Both the position numbers and the translations under genes were made by a program. From the IMG/VR virus record IMGVR_UViG_2648501787_000010: DNA of 9,406 nucleotides. One strand, given 5' to 3'. Source of the DNA: a virus. Lineage: Duplodnaviria > Heunggongvirae > Uroviricota > Caudoviricetes. Below, in pieces: positions 7,254-7,432 of this stretch; positions within the stretch are counted from its first letter, which is position 1, and each line of letters opens with the position of its first letter. Under the pieces are notes generated by a model. That model saw only the letters and a list, made by a program, of their open reading frames with translations. It had not been told where the DNA came from and did not search any database.

Positions 7254-7281
7254 GGCCACCGTGACTGGTGGCCTTTTCTTT
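7254..7281 (+). terminator. rho-independent terminator ending the RHH/small-ORF transcript
   Basis: GGCCACC-GTGACT-GGTGGCC perfect 7-bp GC-rich stem followed by TTTTCTTT. Confidence 0.6.
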
Positions 7282-7319
7282 GCCTGTTATCCGGCAATAG
7301 TGGCGCTTCTTCACACAGT

Positions 7320-7328
7320 TGATATAAT
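7320..7328 (+). promoter_or_regulatory. extended -10 promoter element TGATATAAT on the plus strand between two terminators
   Basis: TGnTATAAT consensus is matched exactly at 7320-7328; no good -35. The only thing downstream before the alpA 3' end is the terminator hairpin at 7378-7402. Confidence 0.3.
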
Positions 7329-7334
7329 TCCCCT

Positions 7335-7402
7335 GCACTGATCCATTTTTTTCGCAGCAGGTTAATTGTTCACAAGGGCGCTCCGGCAACGGGGCGCTTT
7401 TT
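7335..7402 (+). ncRNA. candidate small RNA (about 65-70 nt) defined by the extended -10 promoter and the terminator at 7378-7402
   Basis: Inferred only from promoter plus terminator geometry; no coding ORF with an RBS in the interval. Terminator: GCGCTCCG-GCAA-CGGGGCGC (one G-U pair) followed by TTTTT. Confidence 0.2.
7378..7402 (+). terminator. second plus-strand rho-independent terminator
   Basis: GCGCTCCG-GCAA-CGGGGCGC stem-loop followed by TTTTTGTTATGTT. Confidence 0.5.
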
Positions 7403-7432
7403 GTTATGTTCATTGCGTTACACCTCACACCA

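Follow-up and report, generated by a model that had tools for sequence, protein, structure and literature searches.

A conserved plus-strand cassette predicted to encode a small antisense RNA opposite an eta-like leader frame in Gram-negative phage-inducible chromosomal islands

Introduction

The stretch of DNA analyzed here, 9,406 nt long and referred to throughout as the window (IMG/VR record IMGVR_UViG_2648501787_000010), belongs to the EcCICFT073 type of Gram-negative phage-inducible chromosomal islands (PICIs). It is an Escherichia coli satellite, and it raises the question of how such islands are kept silent. In EcCICFT073, AlpA activates its own expression and that of the downstream genes; no repressor is known for the Gram-negative PICIs, and the repressor or immunity function is acknowledged to be unknown (PMC6092414). 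At one locus of the window, between the minus-strand activator gene alpA and the two small plus-strand genes ylcI and orf62, the initial annotation had placed tandem terminators bracketing an extended −10 promoter, and had proposed that a small RNA convergent with alpA is made there. Here we describe what appears, from comparison of related islands, to be a self-contained plus-strand cassette at 7320–7405, comprising a −35-independent promoter, a non-coding RNA of ~70 nt and a terminator. The cassette lies opposite a long open reading frame (ORF) that follows alpA, referred to as the leader ORF, and its RNA may act as a cis-antisense regulator of that frame.

Results

A promoter and two terminators on the plus strand

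All three elements of the original proposal are present on the plus strand at the positions given for them (Table 1): Terminator 1 (T1) at 7254–7281, the extended −10 at 7320–7328 and Terminator 2 (T2) at 7378–7402, followed by the alpA stop codon at 7433. The extended −10, TGATATAAT, is the sole perfect TGNTATAAT in the window and has the form of a sigma-70 extended −10 promoter (TGnTATAAT), for which a −35 element is dispensable. Judged from the spacing, transcription would start at 7335 (G) or 7337 (A), giving a predicted transcript of ~70 nt that contains no complete ORF (the sole frame, from a TTG at 7366, runs beyond T2); the 65–70 nt ORF-free transcript first suggested is thereby borne out as a prediction. 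Both T1 and T2 have the GC-rich stem-loop and U-tract of intrinsic terminators, and on the plus strand only, as on the minus strand A-runs precede the stems and there is no T-tail. T1 folds with −17 kcal/mol (z = −2.8) and T2 with −20.1 kcal/mol (z = −5.85, equaled by 0 of 200 shuffles); across the window the scan lists 30 terminator-like sites where 11.9 are expected, headed by T2 and T1.

The cassette is present or absent as a unit among related islands

Relatives were gathered with the core of hairpin A (7184–7209), an element that stands upstream of T1 and is independent of both the promoter and T2. Viral and satellite contigs provided 113 loci, which together with E. coli loci make up 83 distinct versions, 79 of them long enough to score. 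Promoter, RNA body and T2 are present in 50 of these 79 versions (45 distinct after trimming), while the other 29 contain only hairpin A and T1, with the neighboring gene directly after; the three parts are present or absent together. The −10 sequence TGATATAAT is intact in 44 of the 45 distinct relatives, the exception reading TGATATAAC, and the ~25 nt upstream of it vary freely. The region from 7175 to 7405 forms a sharply bounded conserved block, in which identity ends at ~7405, exactly where T2 ends; beyond this point the relatives differ, carrying alpA, BRO-N/Ant genes or others. At the opposite edge, one locus (L007) shows identity beginning at 7177, after different plus-strand genes. 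The cassette features carry weight because they are conserved in relatives, not because they are present in one sequence.

Hairpin A is itself a dispersed 40-nt element (~97% identity), found in many E. coli genomes as well as in the 113 viral and satellite contigs and always just upstream of a plus-strand terminator. Its contexts include positions after ylcI–orf62, after unrelated genes (L007), and at 4001–4040 of a P4-like CI/seqA island (L005) that has no plus-strand gene upstream. Because hairpin A and T1 are found without the cassette in about a third of the relatives, we assign the two, on this comparative evidence, to the 3′ end of the ylcI–orf62 unit, separate from the cassette; the idea that tandem terminators bracket a single promoter is consequently not supported. 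What does stand, on comparative grounds, is a plus-strand promoter–RNA–terminator unit convergent with alpA, to which read-through from alpA would be antisense.

The cassette is flanked by imperfect direct repeats of ~21 nt, TCCGGCAA...GGCGCTTCTT at 7290–7311 and TCCGGCAA...GGCGCTTTTT at 7382–7402, which suggests that it may be gained or lost by recombination between them. A complete block (85% identity) is carried by EcCICFT073, and the cassette occurs in 444 of 5,426 complete E. coli genomes (~8%; 289 of them at 80% coverage or more), in every case on the chromosome and with as many as six copies in one genome. Two scans of a species-representative genome collection found nothing, so that all the relatives used come from E. 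coli-type satellites. In the E. coli records listed, the site carries no annotation or only a hypothetical protein, and the searchable literature, queried also by sequence, contains no description of an RNA there; most subscription journals lie outside that search, so that an earlier description is possible.

Another account would make T1 and T2 tandem fail-safe terminators of the ylcI–orf62 unit, guarding against read-in to alpA and int, with TGATATAAT inactive and no small RNA produced. The common orientation of the two terminators and their location downstream of ylcI–orf62 fit this arrangement, a perfect extended −10 is not rare by chance (see Discussion), and T1 alone suffices in about a third of the relatives. 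However, a fail-safe role leaves it unexplained that T2 never occurs without the promoter and RNA body, all three being lost together, and that few 9-mers of the block match the conservation of the −10, which stands beside variable sequence. The most diverged copy (L004) also argues against it: there the extended −10 is replaced by TATAAT with a −35-like TTCACT at 17-nt spacing, a different and equally good promoter, and the layout of −10, about 48 nt and T2 is kept. We consider the fail-safe explanation unlikely.

Both terminators appear to be maintained as plus-strand RNA structures

Sequence variation in the two terminators was used to identify the strand on which they are maintained. In T1, the pair 7257:7270 is C-G in 34 and G-C in 9 of the 45 distinct relatives, a double-sided switch, and at least five different loops occur, with the T-run kept in every relative. 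Single-sided changes in T1 always produce G·U on the plus strand (equivalent to A·C on the minus strand) and never A·C on the plus strand. In T2, the U·G at 7382:7393 is invariant and the variants (GCGC/GCGC; GCGG/CCGC, in two loop versions; CAG/CTG) all have stems that pair, so that T2, too, shows double-sided switches; 20 of 20 T2 variants fold with −14 to −21 kcal/mol on the plus strand and are 6–12 kcal/mol weaker on the minus strand. The T-run is retained in all complete terminator variants. Because the single-sided changes are confined to G·U and the T-runs are retained, both T1 and T2 are probably selected and maintained as structures of the plus-strand RNA.

A formal count of T2 pairs in an ungapped alignment of 14 variants found 92.3% of cells paired, a value reached by 4 of 500 shuffles; the unpaired cells all come from three variants with a 5-nt loop, a register that is invisible to an ungapped alignment. 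Folding the whole 238-nt block to one global consensus yielded long-range pairs that were unreliable, and each hairpin was analyzed individually instead.

The predicted RNA is fully complementary to the start of the leader message

The predicted RNA folds into a U-rich 5′ part of ~38 nt that is largely unstructured, followed by the T2 hairpin and its U-tail. Within the 5′ part, AGGTTAATTGTTC (7359–7371, unpaired in the predicted fold) is unchanged in 44 of the 45 distinct relatives. An additional inner hairpin at 7332–7361, with an outer stem joining the −10 to 7364–7372, was considered and rejected, as its supposed compensatory changes proved to be a mismatch and a wobble at different pairs. 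The predicted RNA is fully complementary to the minus-strand leader mRNA from +9 to +79 relative to the ATG at 7413 (codons 3–27), and a search within the window revealed no second complementary site. The arrangement is that of a cis-antisense RNA, with its own promoter and terminator opposite the leader ORF, and we consider it probable that a short plus-strand RNA is indeed made.

Such an RNA could instead be mainly trans-acting and of the Hfq type, its core AGGUUAAUUGUUC targeting helper-phage or host mRNAs and its antisense overlap being incidental. The near-invariant, unstructured core and the U-rich stretch preceding a terminator hairpin with a U-tail would suit such a role, and E. coli is known to have trans-acting RNAs encoded on islands, Esr41 among them. 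On the other side, no second complementary site was found (only the window having been searched), the U-tail is short (five U, G, two U), and the conserved core is also part of the minus-strand leader ORF, where it could be constrained. We regard a mainly trans-acting RNA as unlikely.

The leader ORF is held open

The initial annotation had noted that alpA has no convincing terminator of its own; the reason is that a long minus-strand ORF, with its ATG and Shine–Dalgarno sequence, begins 19 nt after the alpA stop. On its way to the Icd-like domain, in which it ends, this leader ORF traverses T2, the RNA, the promoter, T1, orf62 and ylcI on the opposite strand, so that ylcI and orf62, located between alpA and the Icd-like gene, are wholly antisense to it. 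Across this interval, the two remaining minus-strand frames have 18 and 22 stops. When ylcI and orf62 are recoded synonymously, the leader frame stays open in 42% and 76% of trials, respectively, and when the three non-coding stretches are shuffled, in 1.6%, 52% and 2.2%; the product of these values is a chance of ~6e-5 for an open frame.

The same holds among relatives. Of 116 distinct relatives, nearly all keep the frame through hairpin A open, with a median of ~360 codons, and in 84 the frame ends in an Icd-like tail. It stays open despite mosaic replacement of its flanks and middle; in L006 and L011, the indels among aligned E. coli relatives add up to lengths divisible by three. Where ylcI and orf62 overlap the antisense leader frame, the third codon positions of the two strands fall on each other, and this third-on-third register is the one with least conflict between overlapping frames, both strands being free to vary. 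Within the block, variable columns at codon positions 1/2/3 of the leader frame number 30/27/23 in a set of 10 sequences and 38/44/30 in a set of 45, with no third-position excess in either set. The predicted protein is Cys- and Ser-rich with no recognizable domain, and Pfam gave no match in the ORF outside its Icd-like end. On the basis of these patterns, the ~1-kb leader frame appears to be selected only to stay open.

For relatives, minus-strand pseudogenes of Icd-like, BRO-N or Ash type are annotated across this stretch by the RefSeq pipeline; several have an ant or BRO-N gene directly upstream of the leader ORF, and in L004 the leader ATG overlaps the stop of an upstream ant gene. In EcCICFT073 (L130, 2752–4053) the open frame between alpA and the Icd-like end has 433 codons, and its start resembles the end of a BRO-N domain (…NMSIISESGFYKLIKTKSAP…). 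This resemblance suggests that the leader may have descended from a decayed Bro-network gene, with the T2 region overlying the C-terminal motif of the former domain.

That a real minus-strand protein of the Bro network, with a decayed BRO-N start and an Icd-like end, explains the conservation, the plus-strand promoter and terminator being by-products, is very improbable: nearly all relatives keep the long frame open, similarity to Icd-like, BRO-N and Ash proteins is mapped onto it by RefSeq and the EcCICFT073 version starts with a BRO-N-like segment, but the codon-position counts, the lack of Pfam matches outside the Icd-like end, the domain-less Cys- and Ser-rich product, and the G·U-only changes and retained T-runs, which indicate selection on the plus-strand RNA, all speak against it.

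The cassette occupies the position of the P4 immunity region

In satellite P4, translation of eta averts termination, with the result that there is read-through from the late promoter; Kil is a truncated Eta, and the CI RNA, which sets immunity, and the seqA site lie inside eta (PMC10111431). The P4 order is ORF88/vis (an AlpA homolog), a 217-codon open frame at 8821–8168, epsilon and others, and the alpha primase; the frame is open for 217 codons from the end of ORF88, and its 3′ end matches NF033153 at 7.8e-21. The window shares this layout, with an Icd/Kil-like gene (NF033153 in both cases) nested in-frame in a long ORF that starts right after the alpA/vis homolog and precedes the primase. 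With its Icd/Kil-like 3′ domain and its long in-frame extension starting just after alpA, the leader frame corresponds, as far as profile and gene order indicate, to P4 eta and the kil nested in it, in position and partly by homology. The cassette region, between the vis/alpA homolog and the nested kil/eta frame, would then be the positional equivalent of the P4 immunity region. The tie depends on the NF033153 profile and synteny, since BLAST against a phage collection found no DNA or protein similarity to P4 or P1.

The RNA itself differs from that of P4. The CI RNA and its targets are on the eta strand, are processed from the leader transcript and match the Rfam C4 and isrK models, whereas the candidate RNA in the window is on the opposite strand with its own promoter and terminator. 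The C4 and isrK/c4-a1b1 models (RF01695, RF01394, RF03163) found no match in 6300–7700 at E ≤ 10 or in the whole window at E ≤ 1, and Rfam searches of the window returned only chance matches (miRNA models on palindromes and terminator-like fragments). The positive controls were detected, with 74.9 and 60.8 bits (C4 and isrK/c4-a1b1) for P4 and 78.3 and 55.1 bits (C4 and isrK) for L005, an Ash-type island without ylcI. The parallel to P4 RNA immunity that had been drawn for this locus therefore stands for the genomic position and the nested kil/eta frame, and fails for the type of RNA.

With the C4 and isrK models of Rfam, CI/seqA relatives are recognized in several Gram-negative PICIs, where they occupy a "Bro zone" that separates alpA from the replication genes (PMC10111431). 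Among the loci compared here, BLAST found no C4 in 118 of 129, and 9 of the 11 with C4 also have ylcI and/or the cassette. In L017, L034, L100 and L106, Rfam places isrK and C4 on the alpA strand roughly 0.5–1.8 kb downstream of the cassette, at a later point in the same leader ORF (Table 1). Replacement of the P4-type CI/seqA by the opposite-strand module is thus too strong a claim; because C4 and the cassette co-occur, we regard the cassette as a control layer of its own, placed at the point where the leader ORF is entered, and islands that have both would possess two RNA-based control layers in series.

Three other systems offer comparisons. The nearest analog is the sar RNA of phage P22, an RNA of about 68–69 nt that inhibits anti-repression and overlaps the ant ribosome-binding site. 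Like the predicted RNA, it is ~70 nt long, convergent with and antisense to the 5′ region of an antirepressor or Bro-network gene; it differs in having no sequence relationship to the cassette, which does not keep an overlap with the start codon from one island type to the next. In the c4–icd–ant region of P1/P7, translation of an Icd-family leader, reportedly described by Biere et al. in 1992, is said to gate downstream transcription under small-RNA control. The P1/P7 immI region and the window have an Icd-like domain in common in their leaders, but C4 is processed from the same transcript and acts via short complementary sites, and the C4/c4-a1b1 models miss the window. Esr41 (EcOnc14) of enterohemorrhagic E. 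coli is likewise an RNA of ~70 nt with a GC-rich terminator and poly(U) in an integrative island, but that island is SpLE1, where it lies near iha and ter; identity was rejected, as the Esr41 cloning-primer sequence is unrelated to 7335–7405. The cassette thus appears to be a conserved and unannotated element that is neither a member of the C4/CI family nor Esr41.

Setting of the cassette in the island

The genes surrounding the cassette are given in Table 1. Close E. coli relatives have the same gene order as the window and adjoin tRNA-Pro/yejM or roxA/pepT. YlcI had been taken for a ribbon-helix-helix protein; a comparison with solved structures gave no match, and the assignment stays a candidate.

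Table 1. Positions of the cassette, the leader ORF and other features (window coordinates unless a related locus is named)
Feature	Position	Strand	Details
Extended −10, TGATATAAT	7320–7328	+	perfect TGnTATAAT match; no −35 match at 7300–7305
Predicted RNA	7335–7405 (~71 nt); end near 7402–7405	+	both ends inferred
Single-stranded core of predicted RNA, CGCAGCAGGTTAATTGTTC	7353–7371	+	nearly invariant
Terminator 2 (T2)	7374–7405	+	core stem GCGCTCCG 7378–7385 / CGGGGCGC 7390–7397; loop GCAA; stem extends 7374–7401; T-run 7398–7405
Terminator 1 (T1)	7254–7281	+	7-bp GC stem GGCCACC 7254–7260 / GGTGGCC 7267–7273; loop GTGACT; T-run TTTTCTTT 7274–7281
Hairpin B	7222–7237	+	upstream of T1; predicted fold; deleted in some relatives
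Hairpin A	7177–7217	+	just after orf62 stop codon, upstream of T1; predicted fold
orf62	6986 or 7001 to 7174	+	phrog_21027
ylcI/ynfO-family gene	6764–6943	+	NF041551, 1.5e-17; unit also matches phrog_949
Eta-like leader ORF	6388–7413	minus	341 codons; ATG 7413; Shine–Dalgarno GAGGT 7422–7426; stop 6388–6390; Icd/Kil-like domain nested at 3′ end
Icd-like (Icd/Kil-like) gene/domain	about 6388–6576	minus	NF033153, 5.4e-18
alpA, island activator gene	7433–7639	minus	PF05930; stop codon 7433–7435
80-codon ORF	7809–8051	minus	
int	8165–9406	minus	
D5-type primase	4105–5859	minus	
75-codon ORF, DUF4222, SSB		minus	further genes
Lambda E-type capsid, decoration, HTH, Nu1-like small terminase		minus	further genes
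isrK/seqA + C4/CI pairs in relatives	L017 9391–9576; L034 2748–2933; L100 3236–3421; L106 2808–2993	alpA strand	Rfam

Several further sequence elements were observed. A near-palindromic 11-mer, GTGMATCGCAC, occurs three times (6652–6662, 6687–6697 and 6732–6742, with spacings of 35 and 45 nt) between the starts of ylcI and the Icd-like gene, and the trio resemble operators of a dimeric regulator. The ylcI ribosome-binding site is flanked by an inverted repeat, TACTGAATC/GATTCAGTA at 6730–6738 and 6755–6763. Upstream of alpA and directly after the 80-codon ORF lies a strong minus-strand intrinsic terminator at 7779–7804, AATAGCGGCC...GGTCGCTATT then TTTTTTT, which would insulate alpA against int transcription. 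The Pseudomonas AlpA is an antiterminator (PMC7969949), and this terminator may be relevant if the island AlpA is one as well. In one relative (L004, 6503–6570, minus strand), Rfam detects the int-alpA RNA motif (RF02996, 45.5 bits) between int and alpA; it was not detected in the window (Rfam, whole window, E ≤ 1). Two long near-perfect palindromes, at 920–1006 and 3935–4018, drew the chance miRNA matches mentioned above; the small-terminase and HTH genes have one of them between them, the other is immediately upstream of the gene for the primase, and they are possible cos, ori or terminator elements.

Discussion

The reading that we prefer is that the cassette produces a cis-antisense RNA that damps leaky expression past alpA, with the leader ORF as its target, and we give this proposal about an even chance of being correct. 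By analogy, the cassette would act as the classical cis-antisense RNAs of mobile elements do, from the slot where P4 has its CI RNA. As in P4, polymerase arriving from alpA would get as far as the Icd-like gene and the primase operon only if the leader is translated. The antisense RNA would be made constitutively from its strong, activator-independent promoter and would pair with the 5′ end of the leader; pairing would block or stall leader translation and leave the message open to Rho and RNase III, and convergent transcription may add interference. In the quiescent island, leaky read-through past alpA would be silenced in this manner, and upon induction AlpA-stimulated transcription would outrun or titrate the antisense RNA.

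Several points weigh against this proposal. Among the 129 loci under comparison, 50 lack the cassette, about a third of the related islands, and L013 (1590–1615) contains a single repeat copy without the cassette, which looks like a natural deletion between the direct repeats. Because of both observations, the cassette is dispensable, a modulator rather than a core part. Counted from the leader start codon, the cassette lies at +9 in the window, at about +23 in L004 and, in islands of the EcCICFT073 type, at about +240; because this distance varies among island types, occlusion of the ribosome-binding site was rejected as a general mechanism. Leader translation and Rho-dependent polarity are steps carried over from P4 by analogy. 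The promoter, taken alone, is not significant (one perfect extended −10 found against 0.26 expected, and at least one in 42 of 200 shuffles). In the formal T2 test a single pair is changed on both sides, which lends modest support, and given the low sequence diversity the covariation rests on few independent events. Finally, the near-invariant unpaired core would fit a trans-acting RNA equally well.

Cis-antisense damping of the leader can also be set within a broader suggestion, that the opposite-strand module as a whole (ylcI–orf62, hairpin A, T1 and the antisense RNA) is the quiescence or immunity determinant of the Gram-negative PICIs; we hold this to be doubtful. If this broader suggestion is true, the module would form an antisense-RNA gate on a translated leader that is unconstrained in sequence, which would differ from the same-strand CI/seqA system that P4 has in the same genomic slot.

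Located in the leader by which alpA is joined to the replication genes, the cassette is a candidate for how these islands stay silent. As it is also present in the experimental model EcCICFT073, the hypothesis is directly testable with published strains and reporters. A leader frame that is selected only to stay open would, moreover, extend the principle of P4 eta, in which translation serves for anti-termination, to a satellite family that is much larger.

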